From the NCBI GenBank assembly GCA_965217775.1, contig CBDCJH010000002.1:2400001-2464000 (forward strand): a stretch of DNA of 64,000 bases, given 5' to 3'. This stretch comes from Acidobacteriota bacterium. GTDB lineage: Bacteria > Acidobacteriota > UBA6911 > RPQK01 > JAJDTT01. Below are positions 11,656-40,440 of the stretch, one piece after another; positions within the stretch are counted from its first letter, which is position 1, and each line of letters opens with the position of its first letter. Below the pieces are notes generated by a model. The model was not told the DNA's origin. It did not search any database and worked only from the letters and a program-made list of their open reading frames with translations. The position numbers were made by a program, and so were the translations under genes.

Positions 11656-11838
11656 TCACGACTTCGTTTGGCGCGTGTAGCCTTCGAAGAGACCTTCCAG
11701 CCTGGCCATGCGATCCGTGAACGCAACTTCGAGCCGGGTGACGCGGTCTCCGACTCGGTCGATCCGCTTCATCATGAACAGGCCCAAAGTCACACTTATT
11801 CCTGCCAATCCAAGGATTCCAATCAGTTCTGGGCTCAT
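11656..11838 (-). CDS. Small membrane-anchored coiled-coil hypothetical protein (60 aa)
   Basis: MSPELIGILGLAGISVTLGLFMMKRIDRVGDRVTRLE...MARLEGLFEG; GGAGG RBS upstream. Confidence 0.6.
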   Translation of the reverse strand: MSPELIGILGLAGISVTLGLFMMKRIDRVGDRVTRLEVAFTDRMARLEGLFEGYTRQTKS

Positions 11839-11933
11839 AGGAGTAACCTCCATCGCAGAACAATGGCGGGACCTTGAGTATAACAAGGTCGTTTCGAGGA
11901 GCTGGATGTCTATTCCCAGTGACCGTAGCTCAA

Positions 11934-12044
11934 CAGTCCGTGGTGAAAGTCTCGCGAGCACCGAGACCGTTCCTGCGCCCGCCGGACAAGGCGCGATGAG
12001 GGAGCATACCGGGAGTATGTGACCGAGTCGCAACGCAGTCCGCC
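11934..12044. mobile_element. First part of a split MITE-like element
   Basis: Near-identical to the reverse complement of 40330-40440; begins with terminal repeat CAGTCCGTGGTGAAAGTC; preceded by TCAA (11930-11933). Confidence 0.9.
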
Positions 12045-12482
12045 TGACTGATTCTATAAATTCTGTAAACCATTCAACATAAACGAGTTACGAATTCTAC
12101 GGCGACGCTCTTCCCCCCATTCTTTCCACCTGAACGAAACGGATGCCCTTGGCCTTTCGTGGCCGTGAATGGACCGTGTCAGCCCCGGATCGCCATGCGC
12201 CCACGCCCCCGAGGCCTGACATTTTTGACGGCCACTTTCCTGCACTTTTGCATGGTCGGCAACAAGACCCCGATGTCGCACGATAATTCCCAGCGAACGT
12301 CCTAAATTTTTGGGGTTTATAGGGATGACGAGAGATCCCTGAAAACCTCTCCCGGTGGAACCCGACAGACACTCCTGCAACACCTCTAGAAGTTTCGTCG
12401 CTGACTTCCGAGTGAACAAGTGATCTATCACATGCGGAGTACTCGAGGGACCTATAGACTTGAATACCCCCTGAATGGACAG

Positions 12483-13451
12483 CTATTCCTGATACTCATA
12501 CTGGGGGTTTTCAACGCGTTCGAATTCGTTCGTCCTGAGATTGTAGCGTCGGCAGAAAGCCGTTGTGCGGATTGCCCCCTGCCGGTCCCGGTACTGGATC
12601 GCCCCAAGGAGGTACGCGGCAGATACACCCTGCGAAAGGAGGGCGAGATCGCGGCCATCGGTCGGTTCGGGTGTAAAGGCAATCCTGATGGTTCGACCGA
12701 CCCGAATTTCGTTAACCCGCGTCTTTTTCCACGGAGGGTCCATCACGGCCAGCTCCACATGGCGGGTGATCCTACAACACATGTAGGCGCAGAGTGGTTT
12801 GCCAGGAAGACCGCCGCTGTTGGCCACTTCAAAATAGCCTCCGCAGTTCCCCTGGAGCATGTTCTTGAGTTCGCTTGGAGCCAATATCTGGTCTTCTCGT
12901 GGGACCCATTTATGGGTAGTAATCTCGTCTCGACCGAGAACGATGTTCCTCAGTTCGAAGACGGGCCGGTGATCAGCCCTGAACCGCTCCGACTGAATCG
13001 AGAACAGTTGCGACTGAATCGCAAACAGTCGCTCGGAGACCTCGTGCTGGCGTTCCGAAAGGGTGTTGCGTTGCTTGGCGGCCTGCGCTTGCTCCCAAGT
13101 GAAATAGACCAGGGCCAGGGTTACGAGCACCAAGGCCACGGAGGGGAGGCTGCCGACGAGTTCCGTAAACCACTCATAACCCTTTGGATTAGAGGTCTGA
13201 TCTGGCTGGTCGCGATGATCCACTGCTACGCCAACGATAGAATTGTCAATTGGTTGCGCCGCAGATACGGTATCAGTCGAACCACGGCTCGAAGGCTCAA
13301 TAAGCTCGCGTACCCTCCCGTCCCGATTAGGGGCATTCTGTTTTTGCTTACTCTCTGGCCCGCCACTTGGACTTGGTGGATTTGAGGGCTCCTGGAATCC
13401 CAGGGAAAGCAGCACCAGGAAACACAGGGATGAGGCTGGATTGTGATTCAT
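12483..13451 (-). CDS. Hypothetical membrane protein (island cargo)
   Basis: GAGG RBS, hydrophobic N-terminus, second TM (VALVLVTLALVYF), coiled coil, globular C-terminus GAIQYRDRQG..TAFCRRY. Confidence 0.6.
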   Translation of the reverse strand: MNHNPASSLCFLVLLSLGFQEPSNPPSPSGGPESKQKQNAPNRDGRVRELIEPSSRGSTDTVSAAQPIDNSIVGVAVDHRDQPDQTSNPKGYEWFTELVGSLPSVALVLVTLALVYFTWEQAQAAKQRNTLSERQHEVSERLFAIQSQLFSIQSERFRADHRPVFELRNIVLGRDEITTHKWVPREDQILAPSELKNMLQGNCGGYFEVANSGGLPGKPLCAYMCCRITRHVELAVMDPPWKKTRVNEIRVGRTIRIAFTPEPTDGRDLALLSQGVSAAYLLGAIQYRDRQGAIRTTAFCRRYNLRTNEFERVENPQYEYQE

Positions 13452-13457
13452 TTCCTC

Positions 13458-13822
13458 TCACATTCCACCAGCCTTTTTAGGATGGTGGAAGTCGAGCACG
13501 TGGTCAAGCGTCAGGTGATCCTGGTCGCCAACCTTGAACCACTTTAGCAATTCGCACCTACCCGTGTTCTTCCTATGCGCCCGACCGCGGTTCTTCAAGA
13601 GGTCATTTCGGATCCTGTGCAGGTCTCCCCACAGCGATGCCTCCACACCGTGCGGCAAGGGGCTCTTTTCCCGGAGAACTCCTGTTTCTTCCGGTACTTC
13701 TCCCACGCACCGTCCACTCTGGCGATCCATCCGACGTAGGCCAACTGCACCATCCGGCCGTTGCACCCCAGTTCCGACGACCACGTAACGGGTGGATTCG
13801 GCATGGTGGAGCGTAGCTCCAT
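13458..13822 (-). pseudogene. Frameshifted hypothetical gene remnant
   Basis: Two overlapping frames (..QLAYVGWIARVDGAWEKYR.. and ..LWGDLHRIRNDLLKNRG..LLKWFKVGD..) read as one broken protein. Confidence 0.4.
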
Positions 13823-14008
13823 GGATAGCGGGGATGTAGCTGGCCGCCTCGCGGTTGCGCCACTGCCACCGGAGCGGCGATGACGCGCCGGGCCTTGAGG
13901 CCGTGGCTGTGCCCGTTGACGTCCGCAAGCCGGACCAACGGGCCGTCTGCCACGAAGTGCACCGCCGCCTCGATGCGTCGCTCAACCGACATCCCGTAGG
14001 GATATCTG

Positions 14009-14257
14009 GGACGGGAGCGACCCCCCACGGCGATGCGGCGCGTGTGAAAACAGCGCCTACCAAGATGCCGATCCGGGAGGCAAAAAGGAGGGGCGCTCCC
14101 ATCCACCTCCGCTTTCCCCCAACCGGCACCGCGGAGCCGAGAATATGTCTGTAACTGCATGAATGGAAAACAGATCGGGGAAAGCGTCTTTGTGAATCGA
14201 CGGGACCGCTTTTTGTGAATCCACCTGGCTGGTCCCATTCTCACTCCCGGATCGGCA
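14009..14257. repeat. Structured non-coding unit, copy 1
   Basis: Diverged direct repeat of 16363-16609. Inverted pairs at 14009-14026/14087-14104, 14066-14079/14244-14257 (perfect 14 bp) and 14110-14119/14177-14186. Confidence 0.85.
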
Positions 14258-14471
14258 CGAGACTCCTGTTTCGCACCCCCGAACGGCGGCCCCGAAAACC
14301 CAGGCTCCGGCTACGCGTAGCCCCGGTCGATCACGGCCTGGAAGGAGTGATCTTCTGCGGCCGGGTCCAACTCCTCGTCCAGACTGACTCGAAGCAGCGT
14401 CATCGTTCGGGCGCGTCACAGCGCCTCTTGCCTCCTAGAGAAACACCTAGGACGAGACCCGGCGTCTACAT

Positions 14472-14690
14472 TTGCGTGCCAAGCTGGACGCCGTGTTCTT
14501 CCATCTCTACGGCGTTACAGACCGTCAGGATGTCCGCTACGTCTATTCGACGTTTCCCATCGTGAAACACCAGGAAACAGGAGCTTATGGGTACTACAGT
14601 TCCCGCGATCTCTGTCTCGCCTGGATGAACGTGCTGGCGGCAGGCAAGCCCGGTGCGGAGATCAATTTGGGGTGGCAAGCAGAAATGTAA
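14472..14690 (+). pseudogene. C-terminal remnant of a type IIG (Eco57I-like) restriction-modification enzyme
   Basis: LRAKLDAVFFHLYGVTDRQDVRYVYSTFPIV resembles the C-terminal tail of such enzymes; the N-terminal bulk is absent. Confidence 0.6.
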
Positions 14691-14828
14691 CTATACGGTA
14701 GCTCCTACCAGGGATCATGAGTACACCGAGTCACGTCCAGCACCGAGATGACTTGCTTCCCACCGCAGTAGCGCCGAACCGTTCCGCGAAAACGTAGGGT
14801 AGTGCTTGAGGTCGATGAGGCTGGCCAC

Positions 14829-15977
14829 TCATTCTTCCAGCTCGTGGAACGCCTCCTTTACCACCGCCCTCCATGTTGTTTCGCGATGTTCTGTGGTGCA
14901 AGTGATCTTGAGTTGTGCGGGTTGCGGTGGGTGGACGTTGTCGGCCGTAATCTTCCCGTCGAGAACGATGTCCCCTGATGCGTGCGATCCAAGGTAGAGC
15001 AAACTGTCGATCCATTTCGTTTCATTGGGTTGGATCTTTTCGGTCCGGATCTTGACAAGGCAGCAATCCGGGAGTTTCTGGACGGTTATGTCGTCGTCAC
15101 CTTTCATGCGGAAACTCGAAAGGCTGAAAACGGGGAAAAGGTCTCTACGGGGTTCCGGTTTCTTTGGCCAGGAGTGCTCGTCGAAGAGGACAGCATAGGG
15201 TGATTGAACGGTGAGTTCTACGCGCACGTCCATGGCGACGACGGATCCAGAGTTGATGATAGCGAATTGCAGTGTGGTACAGAGATGTTTTGCCCAAACG
15301 TAGGCGGCTAGCTCCCGCAGGAAGTCGGTGTTTATGCGGCGGAACTGCAGCGTGGGGATAGGGGGACTGGGCTCCTTGTAATCGGGGATTGCTTCAGAGT
15401 CCCTTATGTCAAGACAGGTGCCGTGAATTGCTTGTGTGTCCCCGGTGAGGCGACGCTGCGTCGTGTCAGCGAACAGTAGCTCGAGATGCGGCGACGCTTG
15501 TGGGATGGGCGCGGCTCCCATGCGTGCGATCTCATCTGGTAGCGCAACCGCCGTGGAGCTGCCACGGCGCAGGTAGACGGTATTTTCAGAAAGCTTGCCG
15601 AACGACTTTATGATGAACCGGGGGCGGTCTTGGACCGGAATGTGGAGGACGCCGACATTTATTCCCTCTAGTCGTGTCGCCCTATAGGAGAAGGTGACTG
15701 GCTGGTTCGTCTTGCTGTTGACGAGTTGCTGGAGTTTGGCGTCCTCGAGGTGGCCGGTAATCCCGACTACCGTCGCGCGGCCGTTGGGGTTCTCTTTGAC
15801 GCCAATGAGGATGTAGGCATCTGCGTGACGCCAAGCGTTGGTGAACGCCAGGATATCCTTGATCAGTTCTCCCTTTTGCTCATTGGTGGCAAGGTCATAC
15901 TGCTGACTCTTGAAGTCCAATGTCGAGCCTTCATCCTCATAGAGCAGGCTTGTGAAGAAGCGGTCATCGTCACTCAT
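14829..15977 (-). CDS. Schlafen/AlbA_2-domain protein
   Basis: EGSTLDFK...IKDILAFTNA...YILIGVKE...VYLRRGSST; unassigned C-terminal domain. Confidence 0.85.
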   Translation of the reverse strand: MSDDDRFFTSLLYEDEGSTLDFKSQQYDLATNEQKGELIKDILAFTNAWRHADAYILIGVKENPNGRATVVGITGHLEDAKLQQLVNSKTNQPVTFSYRATRLEGINVGVLHIPVQDRPRFIIKSFGKLSENTVYLRRGSSTAVALPDEIARMGAAPIPQASPHLELLFADTTQRRLTGDTQAIHGTCLDIRDSEAIPDYKEPSPPIPTLQFRRINTDFLRELAAYVWAKHLCTTLQFAIINSGSVVAMDVRVELTVQSPYAVLFDEHSWPKKPEPRRDLFPVFSLSSFRMKGDDDITVQKLPDCCLVKIRTEKIQPNETKWIDSLLYLGSHASGDIVLDGKITADNVHPPQPAQLKITCTTEHRETTWRAVVKEAFHELEE

Positions 15978-16362
15978 AGGTTTCTCCAGAGTACGGCTCT
16001 TGACGCATTCTGTTGAGCTTGTGACGGGCGGGGGCAGCGGCCAAGTTGAAATACAACATAAGAGCCGCCGTGCTTCCCGTCAGCCGCCGCCAGCTCCCAT
16101 GCTGGTCCGTTTCGCCAGTTCAATCCAAGGATCTGGTGACGCCAGCGCCGTCTGTAGGATGTCTCAGAAAAGGAGCGTTTTACGAAAGGCTTTCCAGAGG
16201 CCCGGTCACGGGACGAAACCTCGGTCAAAACCGTCCTGTTTTGTTGTCTCACTACTCTGTGTATCATACTGCCGTCCTTGGCCGTTTCTCCGCCGCCCGG
16301 CTTCACTGTCCCCAGCGCCGTCTTCTTGGGCACCTTGATGGCCTTCCCGCCAGGGATTGATG

Positions 16363-16609
16363 GGACGGGAGCGACCCTCCCGGGCGATGTGGCGTGTGAA
16401 AACAACGCCGCCCGCCGATGCCGATCCGGGAGGCAAAAAGGGGGGGTCGCTCCCGTCCACCTCCGATTTCCCCGATAGGCACGGCGGACCCGAAAATATG
16501 GCCGTAACTGCATGAGCGAAAAAGAGATCGGGGAAATCGCGCGTGTAAGTCGACAGGTCCCTGCGGTGTAAGTTGCCCTTATTGTCTCACTTACGCTCCC
16601 CGATCGGCA
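16363..16609. repeat. Structured non-coding unit, copy 2 (just downstream of the integrase)
   Basis: Inverted pairs at 16363-16377/16444-16458 (perfect 15 bp), 16419-16432/16596-16609 and 16464-16476/16527-16539 (perfect 13 bp); GAAA-capped hairpin at 16391-16409. Confidence 0.85.
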
Positions 16610-16701
16610 CGGAACCCCACTTTTCATCGGTCAAAATCGATCTTCCGGAAGCTGGCTTGAACGCCATATCACGAAGCCTGTCGGGAGGACGACCCGGCGG
16701 A

Positions 16702-17922
16702 TCAACGGAGCCGACCGGACGCCGGTTGCCGACTCTCGCCAGCCAGATAGCTAGCCCATTCGTCCATGAGCCGGCGCCGCCGCTCGAACAGGTCCGTGCG
16801 CCGGTATGCGGCCTCGATCGGGTTGCGGACCTTGTGCGCCAAAGCCGCCTCCTCCACCTCGCGCGGATGATCCGTCTCCTCGGCCGCCCAGTCCCGGAAA
16901 CTCGACCGGAAGCCGTGCGGCACGGCTGCGATCTTCAACGTCCGGAGCAGACCCGCCATCGCCGTGCTCCCGAGTGGCTTTCCGTGCATGCTCGGAAAAA
17001 CGAGGGGGCCGCCACCGAGTGCCCGCGCCTGATCGAGGATCTCCAACGCACGGCGACTGAGCGGCACCCGGTGCTCCCGATTCCCCTTCGTGCGTCCGGC
17101 GGGGATGGTCCACACTCCCTCGTCCCGGCCGATCTCCGTCCACGCGGCCCCACGGACCTCGCTGGAGCGTGTCGCCGTCAGCACCAGGAACTCGAACGCC
17201 AGCTTCACCACCGGTCGCGCGTTCGACGTTCTCACCGTCCGGAGCGCGGACGCCACTTCGCCATGAGGCAACGCCCGCATGTGACGCACAACCTTCCCCT
17301 GCGCGCCGAGCACCGGACCGATCCGGTCGCACGGGTTGTCGGGCCGAAGATCCATCGCCACGGCCCATTCCAACACCGCGCGGATGCGCTGGCGCAGCTT
17401 CCGGGCCGTGGATGCCTTCTCGTGCCAGATCGGAGCGAGGATTCCGATCACGTCGGCGCTCGTCACCTCCGCAATCGGCATCTTCCCGATGTAAGGGAAG
17501 GCGTGGTGCTCCAGGCTCGCCAGCCAGAGCTGTGCATGCCGGGCGGAGCGCCAGCCCGGCCGCAACTGCTTCCAGACCGTCCGGGTGGCGTCCGCGAAGG
17601 TGGGCATCGACTCGGACCTCCGCTTCTCGGCCCGGGGGTCGCCTCCGTCGCGGGCCAGCTTCCGGTTGGCGAACGCCTTCTCACGCGCTTCTTTGAGCGA
17701 GACCAGGGGGAATCCGCCGAGCCCGAGCTCGGTTCGGCGGCCACGGATGGTGAGGCGCTGGATCCAGCCCCGGCTCCCTGTTAGCCTGACGTCGAGATAG
17801 AGGCCCTGGCCGTCGCAGTAGCGTCCGGCCTGGCTCACGTTGCGGACAAAGGCCGGTGTCAGGACATTGTGGGGATGCTGGCCACGGGGCTTGCGTTGTG
17901 GAGGTCGTTTCGAGAGTGTCAT
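16702..17922 (-). CDS. P4-type tyrosine integrase with arm-binding domain
   Basis: Arm domain GRYCDGQGLYL...LGLGGFPLVSLKEAR; catalytic TRSSE(R), TK, HGFR, ALAH, AAY all present. Confidence 0.95.
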   Translation of the reverse strand: MTLSKRPPQRKPRGQHPHNVLTPAFVRNVSQAGRYCDGQGLYLDVRLTGSRGWIQRLTIRGRRTELGLGGFPLVSLKEAREKAFANRKLARDGGDPRAEKRRSESMPTFADATRTVWKQLRPGWRSARHAQLWLASLEHHAFPYIGKMPIAEVTSADVIGILAPIWHEKASTARKLRQRIRAVLEWAVAMDLRPDNPCDRIGPVLGAQGKVVRHMRALPHGEVASALRTVRTSNARPVVKLAFEFLVLTATRSSEVRGAAWTEIGRDEGVWTIPAGRTKGNREHRVPLSRRALEILDQARALGGGPLVFPSMHGKPLGSTAMAGLLRTLKIAAVPHGFRSSFRDWAAEETDHPREVEEAALAHKVRNPIEAAYRRTDLFERRRRLMDEWASYLAGESRQPASGRLR

Positions 17923-18086
17923 ACCTACCACTATACCCCCCAACCAAATGCGGGATGCAAGGGGATGAAGCGGAACGGTATCGGACAACGACGGACGTCA
18001 GATCTCCTGATAAATCAATGAAAATGAGGTACTTATGTACATTGCTGGACATATCTGGACGATATGTCTGTCTCTCACAACGCATC

Positions 18087-18138
18087 CCGCCGGGATGCAG
18101 GGACGGTCGAATGCCGTGACGACTTTTGCCACGGGCTG
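18087..18138. mobile_element. Second part of the split MITE-like element
   Basis: Matches the reverse complement of 40283-40334; ends GACTTTTGCCACGGGCTG and is followed by TCAA (18139-18142). Confidence 0.9.
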
Positions 18139-18175
18139 TCAAGCCCAGACACCTCGCACCCCGTGGCCGTCAATC

Positions 18176-20548
18176 TCACTCCGACTCGGCCACCGCGTCG
18201 TGCAACCGCTCCAATTCGGCCGCGCAGACTTCCGTCCACTCCCCGCAGGGCGCCGAACGGATCAACGAACGCATCCAGGAGACGTCCTGGCCATACTCGT
18301 TGAGCCGGCGCCCGTAGCTCGCCCGGTTCTTGGTGCAGACCAGGGTGTAGGGACTGCCCTTTCGTTGGGTCACGTGGGACATGTCGAGCCGGTGGCCGTC
18401 AATGATCCGGTGCAGGTGCTTGCGCAGATCCTTCCGTAGCTTGAAACGCTCCGTTTTGGCGACTGGGTTCCTGCAGAAGGCCCGAAGCTTGGCGCAGTGC
18501 CGGCAATCGCAGTCGATCTCGGTCGAGATCGTCCAATCCCGAGGCACCTCGGGAGCTGTCGCGCTACGGCGCAGCAGGAAACCCACGGCATGGCGCCACA
18601 ACAGGGCGTAGGCGCCGGTCCCTGGGATGCCTTCCTGGCCGCGGAGTTGGTCCAGAGCCGCCGGAACCATCCGGTCCGGTGTGATGAGCTGCGGGTGATC
18701 AGCGATGGCGACAGCAGCCGTCTTGGCGTCTTCCGCCAATCCGAATCGCGAAGCCAGCCCGAAGAGGTCACGGATCGCTCCATGGTCGATGGATTTCCGC
18801 TCCCGTTCCCGATATTCCCACGTCTCCTCATCGTCCCACGCTTCCTCTGCGGCCCACGTTGTCCGGTCAGCCTCCACCGGCCGCTTCACCCGCTTCAAGA
18901 CGGCGGGCCAGTCGGCAAGAGCCTGCCTGGCCCCGCCCCGGAGGGCGCCGCTCCAAGCGGGACCCGCCGTCTCACCGACGCGCAGCAGCAGCAGCAGCGT
19001 GTCGCCGGTCCGGTATGGCAACTGAGCTTTGACGAATTCGACCAGGAACTTCCCGCCGGCGTCCGGACCGATCCCAACCAACGCCGCCAGCAGATCATCG
19101 TTTTCGCTGCCGTCATACCTGTGAACCACGACCTGCCGAAGGAAGTGGGCGGTGCGGGTTTCGTCTCCGATCGCAGCCAGCAGGCGAAGCATCCCGGAGC
19201 GGGCCTCTGCGTCGGAGACGTACCGTTCAGTGGGCCAGATTTCGGTCAACCGGCCCACCAGATCGCCGATGCTTTGGCCGGGAACCAAGTCCTCACGTTG
19301 GAATTGCTCGGCCACCCAAGCCACGCCGCGGTCGATGCCGCCACTACTGATGACGTCGAGCGTCTTCGGCCGTGGCCAGATCACGAAGGCAGCACGGCGA
19401 TAGAACTGCTCGATGGTCATGCCCGCGTTGCCCGTCGCTTCATGCACCCTCTGGTCGTCCGGTTCGGCGGCGTCGAGCGCTCCTTCCGGCAAAAGTTCTT
19501 GCCCCAGCAATGGGATCTTTCCAAAAGGCGGGCGGCCTCCGTCCCGGTCCATCCAGCCGTCGAGCGATCGCGTACGGTCGAGCAACTCGTCCATCTCCAG
19601 GGGATCGGAGTCCATCTCATCCCAGTCCTCTTCAACGTAGTAAAGAACGGGGATGCCTGCTTCCCTGACGTGTACGATCGCCAAGTACAATTCCCACTCG
19701 GCCAGATCTGCCGCCGCCTTCAGAACTCGCGCCACGGACGCGTCGGCATTCTTCAAGGCGTCGAAAGAGAGTCCGCTCTCGCTGTAGTCATGCTCCATCA
19801 GCCAGACGTACTTGTCGGGCGGGTGATCGCCGTCACGCCAGTCGATGAGAAAATCGGCGACACTCTCGACCCGATCCGAATAGTCGGGAGCGAGCCGGGG
19901 CGTTTCGGTGTCTCCGGGGCGAAGACAGACGTTGAAAACCAGCGACAGACGATGGCCGTGACGGATCGGCAGTGTTTCGTGGGAACAGTCGGCGTAGAAC
20001 GCAGCGAACGCCAGTTCGGAGGGCTCGTCCGCGTTCATGTCGAGAGTCATCTCTCGACCGCGATGGCGGACGATCAACTCGCCGCCGGCGCCGGCGGTCG
20101 GCAACGAAATCGAAAGTGTGGCTATCATGCCGTCGGCTTTCGCGGTGTCGCGGTGGGACGAAAAGAATCCTCCCGATGGGTAGACGAGCAATTTGTAGAG
20201 TTGCGCGTCCAACCGCTCGAGGGGGCAACCGAGACCGGTCGCGGTGGCGGCGAGAATCTTGGAAAACGTATCCGGCCACGCGCGGCCGCCCAGGCAAACC
20301 TGCGCCGCGTCGATCTGCCGGCAGTCGCGGACGGAGGTATCGACCAAGGTCTCCGTTCCCTTGCCGTAGGGAGCACGTTCGGCCACCTCCATCAATGCAC
20401 GAACCTGTGCGTCGGGAACCGGGAAAGAGAGCAACCCGACGCCGTCGACCTTCAGCACCGGCATTGGGATCAGCAGACGGCCATACGCGAAAAAGTCCCC
20501 CGGGCGGTCAATGGACTGCAGCAGCTTCTCGAGTGAGTTGTCGTCCAT
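18176..20548 (-). CDS. 2OG-Fe(II) oxygenase domain protein with long helical C-terminus
   Basis: YKLLVY..GGFF..HRD (HxD), distal H in SHE, RLSLVFN; C-terminal CDCRHC. Confidence 0.85.
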   Translation of the reverse strand: MDDNSLEKLLQSIDRPGDFFAYGRLLIPMPVLKVDGVGLLSFPVPDAQVRALMEVAERAPYGKGTETLVDTSVRDCRQIDAAQVCLGGRAWPDTFSKILAATATGLGCPLERLDAQLYKLLVYPSGGFFSSHRDTAKADGMIATLSISLPTAGAGGELIVRHRGREMTLDMNADEPSELAFAAFYADCSHETLPIRHGHRLSLVFNVCLRPGDTETPRLAPDYSDRVESVADFLIDWRDGDHPPDKYVWLMEHDYSESGLSFDALKNADASVARVLKAAADLAEWELYLAIVHVREAGIPVLYYVEEDWDEMDSDPLEMDELLDRTRSLDGWMDRDGGRPPFGKIPLLGQELLPEGALDAAEPDDQRVHEATGNAGMTIEQFYRRAAFVIWPRPKTLDVISSGGIDRGVAWVAEQFQREDLVPGQSIGDLVGRLTEIWPTERYVSDAEARSGMLRLLAAIGDETRTAHFLRQVVVHRYDGSENDDLLAALVGIGPDAGGKFLVEFVKAQLPYRTGDTLLLLLRVGETAGPAWSGALRGGARQALADWPAVLKRVKRPVEADRTTWAAEEAWDDEETWEYRERERKSIDHGAIRDLFGLASRFGLAEDAKTAAVAIADHPQLITPDRMVPAALDQLRGQEGIPGTGAYALLWRHAVGFLLRRSATAPEVPRDWTISTEIDCDCRHCAKLRAFCRNPVAKTERFKLRKDLRKHLHRIIDGHRLDMSHVTQRKGSPYTLVCTKNRASYGRRLNEYGQDVSWMRSLIRSAPCGEWTEVCAAELERLHDAVAESE

Positions 20549-20746: not shown

Positions 20747-22189
20747 TTACGCCAACACACCCTTGACCACGTGGCCGTGGACGTCCGTGAGGCGGCGTTG
20801 AATGCCGTTGTGGTAGAAGGTGAGCTGCTTGTGGTCCAGCCCCAGCAGGTGAAGGATGGTGGCGTGGAAGTCGTAGATGGTGACCGGATTCTCGCCCACG
20901 TAGTAACCCACTTCGTCCGAAACGCCGTAGCTGAAGCCCTTCCGGACACCGGCGCCCGCCAGCCAACAACTGAACGCGTGCTGGTGATGGTCGCGGCCTT
21001 TGGCGCCCAGTCCCTCGGTGAACGGGGTTCGGCCGAATTCCGTCGACCACACCACGAGAGTGTCCTGTAGCATGCCCCGGTCCTTGAGATCCTTCAGGAG
21101 TCCGGCCAGGGGACGATCCATGGTCTGGGCCTGCTCGGTGTGGTTCTCCACGATGTCCTCGTGCCCGTCCCAGTTGATGCGGGGCCGGCCGAAGGCGCCC
21201 CCGCACCAGACCTGCACCACTCGGACACCCTTCTCCAACAGCCGGCGGGCCAGCAGGCAGTTCCGGCCGAAGGCGGCCGTCTTTTCCTGGTCCAGGCCGT
21301 AGAGCCGCCGCGTCTCGGACCGCTCCGTGTCCAGGTCCACGATCTCGGGAATGGTCATCTGCATGCGGGCCGCCAGCTCGTAGGACTGGATCCGCGCCTC
21401 CAGGGCGCTGTCGCCGGGATTGGTTTCCAGGTGTTCCCGGTTCATCCGAGCCAGCAGTTTCATCTCACTGGTCCGGCGCCGGGAGGAGATGGTGGGCGGG
21501 GTCGACAGGTACGGCAGGGGGTCGCCCGAATTCCGGAAGGCCACACCCTGGTGGGACGCCGGCAGGAAACCGGCCGTCCAGTTGATGGACCCTCCGGCCG
21601 GGAGGCCCCGGGGATCGGGAAGTACGATGAAACCGGGCAGGTCCCGGTTCTCGGAGCCCAGGCCGTAGGTGACCCAGGAACCCATGGAGGGGTATCCGTT
21701 GCGAGTGAATCCCGAATTCATCTGAAACGTGGCCGGAGTGTGATTGGAACTCTTGGCCTCCATGGACCGAATCACGCAGATGTCGTCGGCGCATTCCGCC
21801 AAATGGGGCAGCAGGTCGCTGACCCAGAGCCCGCTCCGGCCCCTTCTTCGGAACTCGAACGGACTCTTCATCAAGGTTCCGGGCCGTCCGAAGAAGGTGT
21901 CGACTTTTCCCTTCCCGGTCATGGTCTTCCCGTCCAGCCGGGCCAACTCGGGCTTGTAGTCGAAGGTGTCCACGTGACTGACGCCCCCCGCGGCGTAGAT
22001 GTGCAGGATCCGCTTCGCGGGACCCGGGAAATGAGGAGGGCGAGCTCCGAAGGGGGACCGGTCTACACTGCCGCGGACCTCGTCCTGGAGCAGGCAGGCC
22101 AGTGCAATCGCGCCCAGGCCGCCTCCCGAGTTCCATAGAAAGTGCCTCCTGGGCAGCAGGGGTGTCGCCGTCGGGTTGAATTTGTCCAT
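20747..22189 (-). CDS. DUF1501 domain protein
   Basis: RRHFL Tat-like leader, GGVSHVDTFDYKP, WDGH, EFGRTP, GRDH, YDFHATILHLLG. Confidence 0.9.
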   Translation of the reverse strand: MDKFNPTATPLLPRRHFLWNSGGGLGAIALACLLQDEVRGSVDRSPFGARPPHFPGPAKRILHIYAAGGVSHVDTFDYKPELARLDGKTMTGKGKVDTFFGRPGTLMKSPFEFRRRGRSGLWVSDLLPHLAECADDICVIRSMEAKSSNHTPATFQMNSGFTRNGYPSMGSWVTYGLGSENRDLPGFIVLPDPRGLPAGGSINWTAGFLPASHQGVAFRNSGDPLPYLSTPPTISSRRRTSEMKLLARMNREHLETNPGDSALEARIQSYELAARMQMTIPEIVDLDTERSETRRLYGLDQEKTAAFGRNCLLARRLLEKGVRVVQVWCGGAFGRPRINWDGHEDIVENHTEQAQTMDRPLAGLLKDLKDRGMLQDTLVVWSTEFGRTPFTEGLGAKGRDHHQHAFSCWLAGAGVRKGFSYGVSDEVGYYVGENPVTIYDFHATILHLLGLDHKQLTFYHNGIQRRLTDVHGHVVKGVLA

Positions 22190-22203
22190 GGAACTTTCCC
22201 GTT

Positions 22204-25200
22204 TCAGTTCAGGTAGAGAAACTCGCTCGAATTCAGCAGCGCCCAGCAGAAACTCTCCAGGCCCTGGTCGCCGGCGTGGGCCACGGCCCGGCCCGATTCC
22301 TGCGGGTTGGGGCCTCTTCCCAGGGCCAGGCGATAGGCCAGCTCGATCTGCCTCGCGCTGTCGCCGGGAAGCGCCCGGCGGAGCCGATCGGCAAGATGAT
22401 CCGCCTGGCGCAGGACGAAGGGACTGTTCATGAGCGCCAGGGCTTGGATGGGCGTCGTGGTATGGCTCCGGCGAGGCGCCTTGTCGGAGGCGTCCGGGCA
22501 ATCGAACGCTTCCAACATGGGGTCGTGCCCGGATCGGACCACGATCCGGTAGACGGTGCGTTTCCGCATCGGCGGCTCGGCGGAGTCGACCAGGTCGTAG
22601 AAGTGACTGTTGAAAAACTTCACCTCGAAGGGGCGGAATCCGGGTCCGCCGAACTCTCGATTCAGCCGGCCGCTGACGGCGAGCAGCGAGTCCCGGATCA
22701 CTTCGGCCTCCAGCCGCCGCGCGGAAAAACGCCAGAGCAGCCTGTTTTCCGCGTCGGCCTCCGCCGCGTCCGCCCGGAACCCCGACGACTGTCGGTAGGT
22801 GTTGGAGAGCATGATCTCCCGGTGCAACTGTTTCACGCTGCCCCCTTGCCGGAGGAAGGACTGTGCCAGCCAGTCCAGAAGCTCGGGGTGTGAGGCACGG
22901 CCGCCGTTGAATCCGAAATCATTGGGGGTCGAGACGATTCCCCGCCCGAAATGATAGTGCCAGACGCGGTTCACCAGGACCCGCGCCGTTAGGGGATGGT
23001 CCGGGTCGGTGATCCATTGCGCCAAGTGAAGCCGGCGCTGGCCCTCGCGCCCGTCGAGAGGCAACCCGAATTCCGGCTCCGGAGATGAGATGGCGAGGAG
23101 GCCTCCGGGAACGACCGGGTCGCCCGGCGTCGCCGGGTCCCCCCGCTCCATGACCACCGGCGGGGCAGCCCGATAAGTCCGGGCGGCGTAGACCAGGGGA
23201 ACCGGGGGAGCACCTTCCAGCAACCGTTCCTGACGAGCCACCTCCTCCAGCAGTTCATCTCTGGCGAGCCGCTCTTGAGAGCCGGCCTCGGCGTTCCACT
23301 CCTCGGGAGTCACTCGCTGGATGCCGGCCCGGAAGGAGGCGGCAATCTCCTCCGAGGTCAAGGGCCGATCGTAGAGCCGGGCTTCCTCCACCGTCCCCGT
23401 CCCGTCCCCGAAGGCGATCCTGGCCCGGTCTCGGGCATAGACTTGAAGCGCGGACTCCGGACCTTCCCCCTCGGGATCCTGGGCCGAATAGAGGAGCCCC
23501 TGACGATAGATTCGGATGCGGCCCTGGGAGTCATACGTGATGGCGAGATGAATCGGAATTCCGGTCTCGGACTCCTTGGGCACCTCAGGATCGACCGTGC
23601 GGTTCTTGAACTCGCTCAGGTTTCTCCAGGAGCGGGATTTGCTGTGGTAGTAGATGGCATCGAACCTCCCCCTGGCCAGCGGCGAATCGGTAGCCTCGAC
23701 CTTGAAGACCCAGAGTTCCTGGTGCCGTTCTGAGATCCGGACCCACGCCTCGAGGGTCCTTTCCGCCAGGTCGACGGTCAGAGTTTCGGATCGGCCCCGG
23801 GCGTCGCCCTTGAACCGGATGGCGCCCTCCTCGACTACGGCTCCCGATTCCAGAGACAAATGCCCGTCACCCAAGGAATCGGTCCCATCCAGGTCGAAGG
23901 TCCAACGAGCGATGGGCCCGGGGACCGGCTGCGGAGCGATCCCGCGCTTCCTCAGGACCCGCTCCCGGACCTCGTCCTGAAGCTGGGCCAGCCGCCGCTT
24001 CAGGCGACGGATTCCATCCCTGAGAGGCTCGGTTCGTTCCTTGTGGGCGGCCGTCTCCGCCGGCGTCAGCCAGGGCCGGTCTCCGGCACGGATTCCGTCC
24101 AGGCAGGCCTTCAGACGATAGTAATCCCGCTGGGAGATGGGGTCGAACTTGTGGTCATGGCATCGCGCACAGTTGACCGTCATACCGAGGAAGGTCTGGG
24201 CCACGGTCCCCACCATCTCTTCCATCTCCACGGCCCGGACCCGGGCTCGCATGACGTCGCTCTGCTGCGTGTGCCCCACCTCGTCCCAGGGAGCCGCGAC
24301 CAGGAAACCGGTGGCTGCGATCCCGTCCCGGGTCCGGGGCTGCAGAACGTCTCCTGCGAGCTGCTCCAGGACGAACCGGGCATAGGGCTTGTCCTGATTG
24401 AAGCTCCGAATCACATAGTCGCGGTAGGGCCAGGCATGATCCCGGATCTTGTCCCGTTCATAGCCCTGGCTCTCCCCGAAACGGGCCAGATCCAACCAAT
24501 GACGGCCCCAGCGCTCGCCGTAGTGAGGCGAGGCCAGCAGGCGGCTCACCAGATTCTCGTAGGCTCGGGGAGACGTGTCCGAGACGAACGCCTCGACCTC
24601 CCCGGGCGGGGGCGGCAATCCCAGCAGATCCAAGGTCGCCCGCCGGATCAACACCTCCCGGGACGCCGGCGGAGAAGGCTCCAACCCCCGCTCCTCCAGA
24701 GCCGCCAGGATGAAGGCGTCGATGGGTTTTCGAACCAACGGCGCCTGCTTCACCACGGGAACGGCCGGGCGGTGCACCGGTTTCAATGACCACCACAGCG
24801 GTTCGGGCAAATCCCCTCCGGCCTGGGATGCGTCCTGGTCTCCAGCCGGCCAGACGGCTCCCTGATCGATCCAGCGCCGGACCACGTCCACCTCGGCTTT
24901 CGACAAGGGATCGCTCGGGGGCATCTCGCCGGAGCGAACCTTTTCATAGAGGAGGCTTTGTCCGGACTCGCCCGGCTCCAACGCCGGTCCGGAACTCCCA
25001 CCCAACAGGACCCCCTCCCGGCTCGACAGATCCAGGCCGGCCATGGCGCCGACCCCGCGGTGGCAGACCTGACATTTCTGAAGGACTGAAGAGACTTCTC
25101 CGGCGGAAGTCTTCGGTGCGGATTCGCTCCGGAGAGGCGTTACCGCCAGGAGCAGCAGGTGAAGGCCTGCTATTACGGCCCGTGTGACCGTGCATTGGAT

Positions 25201-25290
25201 ACGACCCACGAACCTGCCGTTTCGGCATGGGAAACCGGGGTCGGAGCGGCGTGCTCCACAGGACGAAGCGGCAAGATCTGATTCAGGCAT
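22204..25290 (-). CDS. Planctomycete cytochrome c / DUF1549 / LamG / DUF1553 (PSD1) protein
   Basis: CQVCH; PHYGERWGRHWLD; CARCHDHKFDP; VNRVWHYHFGRG; QALALMN. Start uncertain. Confidence 0.9.
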   Translation of the reverse strand: MPESDLAASSCGARRSDPGFPCRNGRFVGRIQCTVTRAVIAGLHLLLLAVTPLRSESAPKTSAGEVSSVLQKCQVCHRGVGAMAGLDLSSREGVLLGGSSGPALEPGESGQSLLYEKVRSGEMPPSDPLSKAEVDVVRRWIDQGAVWPAGDQDASQAGGDLPEPLWWSLKPVHRPAVPVVKQAPLVRKPIDAFILAALEERGLEPSPPASREVLIRRATLDLLGLPPPPGEVEAFVSDTSPRAYENLVSRLLASPHYGERWGRHWLDLARFGESQGYERDKIRDHAWPYRDYVIRSFNQDKPYARFVLEQLAGDVLQPRTRDGIAATGFLVAAPWDEVGHTQQSDVMRARVRAVEMEEMVGTVAQTFLGMTVNCARCHDHKFDPISQRDYYRLKACLDGIRAGDRPWLTPAETAAHKERTEPLRDGIRRLKRRLAQLQDEVRERVLRKRGIAPQPVPGPIARWTFDLDGTDSLGDGHLSLESGAVVEEGAIRFKGDARGRSETLTVDLAERTLEAWVRISERHQELWVFKVEATDSPLARGRFDAIYYHSKSRSWRNLSEFKNRTVDPEVPKESETGIPIHLAITYDSQGRIRIYRQGLLYSAQDPEGEGPESALQVYARDRARIAFGDGTGTVEEARLYDRPLTSEEIAASFRAGIQRVTPEEWNAEAGSQERLARDELLEEVARQERLLEGAPPVPLVYAARTYRAAPPVVMERGDPATPGDPVVPGGLLAISSPEPEFGLPLDGREGQRRLHLAQWITDPDHPLTARVLVNRVWHYHFGRGIVSTPNDFGFNGGRASHPELLDWLAQSFLRQGGSVKQLHREIMLSNTYRQSSGFRADAAEADAENRLLWRFSARRLEAEVIRDSLLAVSGRLNREFGGPGFRPFEVKFFNSHFYDLVDSAEPPMRKRTVYRIVVRSGHDPMLEAFDCPDASDKAPRRSHTTTPIQALALMNSPFVLRQADHLADRLRRALPGDSARQIELAYRLALGRGPNPQESGRAVAHAGDQGLESFCWALLNSSEFLYLN

Positions 25291-40282: not shown

Positions 40283-40440
40283 CAGCCCGTGGCAAAAGTC
40301 GTCACGGCATTCGACCGTCCCTGCATCCCGGCGGACTGCGTTGCGATTCGGGCACATACTCCCGGTATGCACCCGAATCGCGCCTTGTCCGGCGGGCGCA
40401 GGAACGGTCTCGGTGCTCGCGCGACTTTCACCACGGACTG
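40283..40440. mobile_element. Intact 158-bp MITE-like element
   Basis: Imperfect terminal inverted repeats CAGCCCGTGGCAAAAGTCG / CGACTTTCACCACGGACTG; ATAT on both flanks (40279-40282, 40441-40444); internal hairpin 40343-40381. Confidence 0.9.

Follow-up and report, generated by a model that had tools for sequence, protein, structure and literature searches.

A repeated ~270-bp element in an Acidobacteriota genomic island is a candidate origin of transfer of an integrative conjugative element family

Introduction

What is the role of a sequence element that occurs twice, in diverged form, within a small genomic island and keeps its inverted repeats while its letters change? The question is raised by a 64,000-nucleotide stretch of DNA from an Acidobacteriota bacterium (assembly GCA_965217775.1, contig CBDCJH010000002.1, positions 2,400,001 to 2,464,000), which we refer to as the window and to which coordinates refer unless another contig is named. 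A preliminary description of the window had noted a twice-repeated, integrase-associated structured element of ~250 bp and had proposed an undescribed structured noncoding RNA or a folded or multi-site DNA recombination locus. We call the repeated element, which measures ~270 bp, EL. Here we followed EL through other genomes and found it in the conjugation modules of integrative conjugative elements, next to a gene that we call geneX. We propose, with a probability of roughly 0.6, that EL acts in cis, as a DNA site within the DNA-processing module of these elements, most likely an origin of transfer (oriT), and that the island in the window is a mobilizable element without a relaxase gene of its own.

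Results

EL occupies the gap between geneX and the coupling protein gene

The two ELs of the window, copy A (13989–14260, plus strand) and copy B (16342–16612, plus strand), are direct repeats that lie ~2353 bp apart and share ~80% identity. Two diverged direct copies were thus seen correctly at the outset, but they belong to a family of seven full and three partial copies in this genome (BLAST and nhmmer searches of the whole genome), and each reaches ~20 nt further to the left (to 13989 and 16342, respectively) than had been described. EL is present in seven of the eight other genomes of the genus and in two genomes of other families, and diverged homologues occur in other phyla. Some genomes contain dozens of EL candidates (18 per genome were scored). 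The impression that the element belongs to no known family held: Rfam gave no match at E ≤ 1 over positions 13000–19500 of the window and none at the gathering score in five related loci. Plasmids of PLSDB gave no match to EL by blastn. A limited literature search on relaxases and oriTs found no earlier description of EL, which does not establish that there is none.

One copy of EL, in the genome labeled G003, is part of a complete conjugation module. Here, genes for DUF1376, TrbC/VirB2, a VirB4-like ATPase, CagX/VirB9, TrbI/VirB10, TrbL/VirB6, and VirB8 are followed on one strand by geneX and EL, and downstream of EL, again on the same strand, lie genes for a TrwB/TraG-type coupling protein, a VirB11-like ATPase, and ArdC. 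The EL of this module aligns over its full length with the window copies. The same arrangement recurs among 80 geneX loci obtained from a scan of species-representative genomes, the record titles of which name Acidobacteriota, Gemmatimonadota (Longimicrobiales, Palauibacter), Gammaproteobacteria, and Dehalococcoidia. VirB8 is encoded upstream of geneX in 70 of the 80 loci, and the coupling protein is encoded downstream in 56. EL begins 11–62 nt past the geneX stop codon in 57 loci, always in the same orientation (nhmmer, E ≤ 1e-3). This synteny indicates that EL fills the gap between geneX and the coupling protein gene in a family of conjugative elements that crosses phyla.

The G003 module is part of a large integrative conjugative element (loci L067, L068, and L069; G003:C1:1976001–2031900) with a VirB/Trb-type type IV secretion system (T4SS) and ArdC. 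Its cargo comprises two C-5 methylases, Vsr, a RES-domain protein, RadC, and a GHKL ATPase, and a cI-like repressor, an HTH_17 protein, and a fragment of a P4-type integrase are found near its far end. None of the known relaxase families of Pfam was found among the heuristically picked open reading frames (ORFs) of ~57 kb around this element, a selection that may miss a gene. The lack of a recognized relaxase fits a role of geneX as the relaxase.

The geneX protein combines a predicted winged helix with a putative nuclease-like domain

The geneX protein consists of ∼310 amino acids (314 in G003) and has at least 3235 homologues, nearly all of them unnamed. Plasmids of PLSDB contain no tblastn match to it. 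The full-length model reached a mean predicted local distance difference test score (pLDDT) of 73.8. In this model, residues ~1–95 assume a MarR-like winged helix (VIA Z score of 8.4, root mean square deviation of 2.4, 75 aligned residues covering ~14–91; Foldseek probability of 0.96 with E of 0.04).

The C-terminal 215 residues, modeled alone (pLDDT of 76), have a core of the order α-β-β-β-α-β. The top VIA matches of this domain are, judging by their titles, mostly restriction-type and related nucleases, with Z scores of at most 7.7: CdiA-CT (7.7), SdaI (6.9), a repair endonuclease from Pyrococcus abyssi (6.9), BstEII (6.3), and the nickase N.BspD6I (6.2). AgeI, BglII, BsoBI, NgoMIV, and FokI are further nucleases among the matches. 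We take the top-ranking nucleases all to have the PD-(D/E)XK fold. As a fold-level lead, the geneX protein would therefore consist of a winged helix at the N terminus followed by a PD-(D/E)XK-like nuclease domain at the C terminus. Based on these models, geneX would encode the MOB-C-like relaxase of EL or, at least, its site-specific DNA-binding protein. The tie of geneX to the Replic_Relax family is an Atlas lead alone (clusters bearing Replic_Relax, score of 0.84, rank 16).

EL combines a nested inverted repeat with a phased array of repeated words

The anatomy of EL was derived from alignments of ∼100 copies in a near and a distant set, the latter with 45 copies. At the left edge, a small hairpin (P0) overlaps the motif GGGAAGG on the other strand, and the start codons of varied downstream genes follow; in many copies an ATG stands 5–8 nt after GGGAAGG. 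Between copies, the hairpin changes from TCCC/GGGA to TCCT/AGGA. A small ORF with zinc-ribbon-like features (MTPVTGKMGRMSVPDIHEQRLE...RCPECGY...C.RCG) recurs directly after GGGAAGG, often in decayed form, and its sites are found downstream of many ELs (e.g. in L017, L036, and L040 and at G000:C2 ~814150).

The left arm proper is built from an outer inverted repeat (P1; 19 bp in the window, 96% paired) that encloses a 13-bp hairpin (P2; 81% paired). In copy A these span positions 14009–14104, with P1 arms at ~14009–14026 and ~14087–14104, of which the 3′ arm is imperfect, and P2 at 14040–14057. In copy B they span 16363–16458, with 19-nt P1 arms at 16363–16381 and 16440–16458 that are 95% complementary and P2 at 16392–16409. 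The 9–10-bp core of P1 (GGGAGCGAC / GTCGCTCC) is invariant even across phyla, as seen in the 45 distant copies. The center of EL is variable and contains short palindromes.

The right arm features an 8-bp word in two direct copies and one inverted copy, and an automated search recovered this triple in 74 of 98 ELs. In the alignment, ~85 nt separate the 3′ arm of P1 from the start of the word repeats. A spacing of exactly 23 bp between the two direct copies is kept in 70 of the 74 typed ELs, across at least four motif variants; the inverted copy follows 20–28 bp beyond the direct pair, and a fourth copy (≤1 mismatch) is located at the apex of P2 in 56 of the 74. In copy A of the window the array covers 14191–14243, with TGTGAAT at 14191–14197 and 14214–14220 (23 bp apart), the inverted ATTCTCA at 14237–14243, and the fourth copy, TGTGAAA, in the P2 loop at 14043–14049. 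In copy B it covers 16543–16596, with GTGTAAG at 16543–16549 and 16566–16572 (also 23 bp apart) and the inverted CTTACGC at 16590–16596. The two ELs of the window thus carry different words. The word varies from lineage to lineage (TGTGAAT, GTGTAAG, GTGCACA(T), GTGCGCA, and GCGTGAA).

This anatomy could also be that of an element devoted mainly to transcriptional and translational control, in which an operator array for geneX as a winged-helix regulator is joined to the leader of the coupling-protein operon, and which islands would have copied so that their cargo is expressed while a conjugative element is active. The ATG placed 5–8 nt after GGGAAGG, the overlapping P0 hairpin with its TCCC/GGGA to TCCT/AGGA changes, and the co-orientation of the genes on either side of EL in complete elements all suit such a region, as do the phased repeats, which could serve a repressor or an activator. 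However, a promoter and terminator scan of both window copies gave nothing beyond chance, with no sigma-70-like promoter in either (consensus scan only); the nuclease-like C-terminal domain of geneX would be unexpected in a plain regulator; and an invariant inverted core of 9–10 bp that is split by ~70 nt would be an unusual layout for an operator. We consider control as the principal function of EL unlikely. Because oriT regions often contain promoters, such a function is compatible with an oriT, and EL may also hold the control region of the coupling-protein operon.

Repeated words change in concert

The features of a structured RNA that had been read from the two window copies are present. 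The inverted pairs occur in the order A-B-A′-C-C′-B′; the C/C′ strings are CGCTTTCCCC/GGGGAAAGCG in copy A and CGATTTCCCC/GGGGAAATCG in copy B; and the small hairpins read GGCGC..GAAA..GCGCC and GGCGT..GAAA..ACGCC, respectively. Across 53 distinct copies the proposed pairs are 84.5% paired, compared with 39–51% when the partners are slid by 1–3 columns. Cells with changes on both sides number 124–136, compared with ~63 expected from shuffles, and none of 500 shuffles reached as high a count.

The compensatory changes are therefore real, but they do not single out one fold. Within one EL all copies of the word change together, including the direct repeats, which are unable to pair with each other. 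Direct repeats 1 and 2 each "pair" with the inverted copy 3 in 93 and 95% of cases, respectively. C/C′ is 78% paired and B/B′ 72% across copies, and B, which had been proposed to pair outside the loop of A/A′, does have this partner but pairs as well or better (82%) with a third, internal copy. Concerted change is also seen in a second word (GATCGGCAC / GTGCGGGCGC), of which there are one inverted copy and two direct copies. Since direct repeats and alternative partners covary equally, the compensatory pattern reflects concerted change of repeats and is not evidence for one fold. At the level of sequence, this points to sites that are read by a co-evolving protein more than to a single RNA fold. 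The geneX protein would be a candidate for this reader: mutual information with the word type is highest at six columns of its alignment (residues 46, 48, 40, 54, 69, and 73), and 12 of the top 30 columns fall within residues 40–76, the predicted recognition helix and wing.

A transcribed structured RNA, either an intergenic mRNA element or an antisense small RNA with alternative pairings as a switch, is in our view quite improbable. It would account for the many pairs that have changed on both sides and for the folding of both strands of both window copies, which is better than that of 200 dinucleotide shuffles (z of −3.7 to −4.2, with no shuffle folding as well), and the two possible partners of every inverted segment would be switch-like. 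On the other hand, a word with three copies in one sense and one in the opposite sense, at a fixed spacing of 23 bp and with all four changing together, fits an RNA poorly, the direct repeats cannot pair with each other, and no Rfam family matches. Wobble pairs, considered as a test of the strand, were not decisive: counted on the plus strand in distinct haplotypes of the near and distant sets, G·T exceeds A·C in P1/P2 (48 versus 18), which would suit an RNA, whereas the right-arm hairpin shows no such bias (18 versus 19), so that the plus strand is favored in P1/P2 only and the remaining helices are neutral or opposite. The bias in P1/P2 is weakly indicative of extrusion or refolding of single-stranded DNA as at transfer origins, and antisense RNA would fit as well.

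One RNA library, a sponge metatranscriptome (share of 0.05), matches the window. A 199-nt contig aligns to 16086–16284 with one mismatch, between the start of the Schlafen-like gene described below and copy B; a 35-nt piece aligns to 14692–14726; and a 47-nt piece aligns to 14184–14230 in the motif array of copy A with six mismatches and loose ends on both sides, which we attribute to another copy of the EL family. The library consists of contigs that do not show the strand and may include DNA carry-over, so this coverage speaks weakly against an RNA and is uninformative on the expression of EL. EL was also considered as coding sequence, because minus-strand ORFs overlap both copies. This was rejected, as the starts are not equivalent, Pfam gives no match, and indels of 1–2 nt separate the copies.

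The phased short repeats next to the gene for a winged-helix protein, together with the Atlas lead to clusters bearing Replic_Relax, would also be expected if EL were a vegetative replication origin with iteron-like repeats and geneX its initiator. We find this hardly probable. No AT-rich unwinding region was seen in the inspected sequences, the G+C content of EL being ~60–65%; geneX lies inside a T4SS operon between VirB8 and the coupling protein (56–70 of 80 loci); and its C-terminal fold resembles a nuclease instead of a second winged helix.

The window holds an integrated island with two ELs and no conjugation genes

Both ELs of the window are internal to an integrated island of ∼6 kb (12045–18049) with lower G+C content. 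The island is bordered by an imperfect 40-bp direct repeat, with the left copy at 12005–12044 and the right copy at 18050–18089 (both plus strand). These form the end of the left part (11921–12044) and the start of the right part (18050–18145), respectively, of a ~170-bp interspersed repeat that is split by the island, so that the junctions at ~12044 and ~18050 lie inside this repeat. The left 40-bp copy is identical to intact 170-bp repeats and the right copy is diverged, which is the usual signature of site-specific integration. The congener G001 has a clean empty site at the syntenic position and lacks window positions 11925–18147, i.e. repeat and island; the block that it lacks has one part of the ~170-bp repeat at either end. 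Genomes G006 and G007 contain 175 unrelated bp at the syntenic site.

The ~170-bp repeat is present in 214 near-full copies (≥150 nt) in this genome, with 93–99% identity, and in many copies in congeners. An intact copy is found at G000:C2:2480135–2480304, and a further match to the right part lies at 40283–40346 of the window. Homologues of the integrase in G004, G005, and G007 have the same part of the repeat upstream, so the repeat looks like the target of this integrase family. By coordinates, G004 and a 3.7-kb island of G007 show the layout of the window island, in the order repeat part, integrase, EL, cargo, conserved left arm, and repeat part.

The integrase of the window (16702–17988, minus strand, 428 amino acids) is a P4-type tyrosine integrase with the Pfam domains Arm-DNA-bind_3, Phage_int_M, and Phage_integrase, and the right 40-bp repeat lies 62 nt upstream of its start. 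The preliminary description had correctly placed copy B ~90 nt from the stop codon of this gene (16702); the right flank of copy A contains no integrase gene. Between the two ELs, the island encodes a cargo protein of 382 amino acids with a Schlafen/AlbA_2 domain (Pfam; 14829–15977, minus strand). Among the five selected ORFs of the island (11659–17988), which were part of a scan of 13 window ORFs, Pfam found only the integrase and Schlafen/AlbA_2 domains and no relaxase or T4SS gene, and tblastn found no match to geneX or T4SS proteins in the range of the window. The flanking core genes at 20747–25290 encode DUF1501 and PSCyt/PSD ("planctomycete cytochrome") domains. Because the titles of related records give Acidobacteriota, these Pfam names are no guide to taxonomy here.

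At the level of the whole genome (97.9% complete), tblastn with seven T4SS proteins, including VirB4, the coupling protein, and VirB11, found no T4SS genes; geneX, ArdC, and DUF1376 were queried in the same search. Any mobilization would thus need an incoming helper. The only long geneX-like sequence of the genome (G000:C2:4828441–4829371; L015 ~1440–2370) has 40–49% identity and is divided between two frames, at a distance of ~6 kb from a left-half EL (4835268–4835416) and next to genes for an IrrE/M78 peptidase, DUF4411, and HicA. Full ELs persist in islands without conjugation genes, namely the window island and the 3.7-kb island of G007. An island with an integrase and its own attachment (att) site, without relaxase and T4SS genes and with two ELs of differing variant, is what we would expect of an "oriT-only" mobilizable island.

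The link of EL to integrase genes is secondary

The proposed association with integrases is real and only part of the picture. For at least 12 of 29 near-full-length integrase homologues from five genomes, an EL match begins no more than ~170 nt from the stop codon, and its orientation relative to the gene does not vary; at seven integrase-bearing loci, the window included, EL lies 46–93 nt past the stop in five and ~1 kb further in two. Fragments of the integrase C terminus followed by EL are recurrent, and arrays of ELs and such fragments occur. Across phyla, however, EL is linked to the conjugation module, which makes the link to integrases secondary.

The EL copies of this genome sit in stretches of lower G+C content with defense, toxin–antitoxin, and transposase genes. 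Solitary ELs lie within larger repeated modules and are not free-standing short insertions. The right flank of many of them is a remnant of the geneX C terminus, which suggests descent from complete elements by deletion. In G004, a tyrosine recombinase of a second type (504 amino acids, Phage_integrase and SAM-like N-terminal domain; L060:4732–6243, minus strand) is encoded ~750 nt beyond a "solitary" EL, past an ORF of 143 amino acids, and several solitary ELs of this genome have up to 2.3 kb of that flank in common. EL halves are mosaic. Half copies were considered as markers of a crossover or nic site and dropped, because across genomes one flank is common to all four right halves and a different one to two of the three left halves; each group thus represents one inherited rearrangement and not recurrent site-specific breaks.

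The att site maps within the 170-bp repeat, and EL is therefore not the recombination site of the integrase, which also rules out EL as an attP that accretes in tandem. The preliminary proposal of a folded or multi-site DNA recombination locus survives in so far as EL is multi-site, partly foldable, integrase-linked DNA, but the integrase recombines elsewhere (12005–12044/18050–18089). Taken as a whole, a tyrosine-recombinase site (att or cassette) or the end of a miniature inverted-repeat transposable element or insertion sequence is very improbable for EL: the ELs directly after at least 12 of 29 integrase homologues, the arrays with integrase fragments, the mosaic halves, and the second recombinase type after some solitary copies would fit, but the island att is located elsewhere according to the empty site of G001 and the intact 170-bp targets, the inspected half copies with flanks common across genomes trace to one inherited deletion, the solitary copies lie inside larger repeated modules (target duplications were not looked for), and EL is conserved in conjugation modules without an integrase within the 3.5-kb flanks by the probes used.

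Discussion

EL compared with known transfer origins

The nearest known counterparts of EL are the transfer origins of MOB-C relaxases. According to a 2025 review, MOB-C relaxases are related to the PD-(D/E)XK superfamily and are found in conjugative plasmids, integrative conjugative elements, and mobilizable plasmids, and TraX of pAD1 has an N-terminal winged helix-turn-helix and binds five direct repeats located 70–120 bp from nic (PMC12857230). PF13814 has been equated with MobC, and islands that have an oriT but no conjugation protein are described (PMC5357655); such oriT-only islands have been named "iOriT" (PMC11389934).

EL resembles the origins used by TraX of pAD1 and MobC of CloDF13 in having an adjacent protein with a predicted winged helix and a possible restriction-endonuclease-like domain, in the short direct-repeat array tens of base pairs from a large inverted repeat, and in its occurrence in conjugative and mobilizable elements of many phyla. 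It differs in that geneX falls outside PF13814 and has no match in PLSDB, in that the EL word occurs in three direct copies and one inverted copy instead of the five direct repeats described for pAD1, and in its hosts, which are uncultivated Acidobacteriota and Gemmatimonadota; nicking is putative here. For oriT2 of pAD1, too, a position between the relaxase gene and a gene resembling traG has been reported, as has a role of the direct repeats in setting specificity (Francia and Clewell, 2002).

With the iOriT elements (for example, the Vibrio mobilizable genomic islands (MGIs) and MTnSag1), the window island has in common an integrase with its att site, a copy of a conjugative transfer region, the absence of relaxase and T4SS genes, and cargo (PMC11389934, PMC5357655). 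Unlike them, it holds two ELs of different motif type, has as its insertion site a 170-bp repeat (214 near-full copies) and not a tRNA or protein gene, and has no helper element in its genome. Folded single-stranded sites such as integron attC share with EL the imperfect inverted repeats that flank co-oriented cargo beside a tyrosine recombinase gene, and folding of the left hairpins may be strand-biased in EL as well. In contrast to the integron case, the window integrase is P4-type with an arm-binding domain and its att maps elsewhere, and EL, at ~270 bp, has phased direct repeats and is part of conjugation modules.

A model for mobilization by EL

In the mechanism that we propose, the geneX protein would bind the four phased copies of the 8-bp word through its winged helix and would nick a single strand within or close to the nested inverted repeat P1/P2; this repeat could be extruded or could refold in single-stranded form. 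Export of the nicked strand would then fall to the coupling protein and the T4SS. An incoming conjugative element of matching specificity could mobilize the window island in trans, and the Schlafen-like gene would be carried along.

Several observations weigh against this proposal. The geneX protein matches no Pfam family at E ≤ 1, PF13814 (Replic_Relax/MOB-C) included; Foldseek against the PDB gave nothing at E ≤ 0.001 for either geneX model; and the highest VIA Z scores (8.4 and 7.7) lie in the range that the tool calls "middling." The lack of a recognized relaxase in the G003 element leaves room for an unseen one. The mutual information between geneX and the word is confounded by shared descent, geneX and EL being adjacent. 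In a genome that lacks T4SS genes, the ELs may be relics. The several ELs per island and the ribosome-binding-like GGGAAGG with its start codon would fit the role of a promoter or leader too. Finally, beyond the observed distribution, synteny, repeat architecture, concerted change of words, and fold-level similarity of geneX, the binding, nicking, and mobilization are steps that we infer.

A wider reading joins these parts, and we put it forward tentatively, at a little short of even odds. In it, geneX would found an unannotated relaxase clade that is invisible to Pfam and, by extension, to Pfam-based MOB typing, with EL as its oriT, in elements of at least four phyla of uncultivated bacteria. 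The winged helix would read a four-site code, phased at 23 bp, in which specificity resides. Islands with P4-type integrases but no relaxase would form swarms that target the 170-bp repeat, with variants of EL serving as "tickets" for different helpers, and in this way defense cargo would move through the community.

Implications

The origin of transfer is the least annotated part of conjugative elements, and oriT-only hitchhikers are believed to be common and are hard to find. As EL would illustrate, "compensatory" changes in inverted repeats beside an integrase gene can stem from a DNA site that is read by a protein and not from an RNA; the structured noncoding RNA of the preliminary description is unlikely. 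If EL is an oriT, a conjugative family with thousands of unannotated geneX homologues would gain an oriT model for use in searches as well as a candidate relaxase, and the variants of motif and recognition helix would form a natural series for the study of relaxase specificity. An oriT function of EL would also explain the possible spread of small defense-gene islands among uncultivated Acidobacteriota and Gemmatimonadota.

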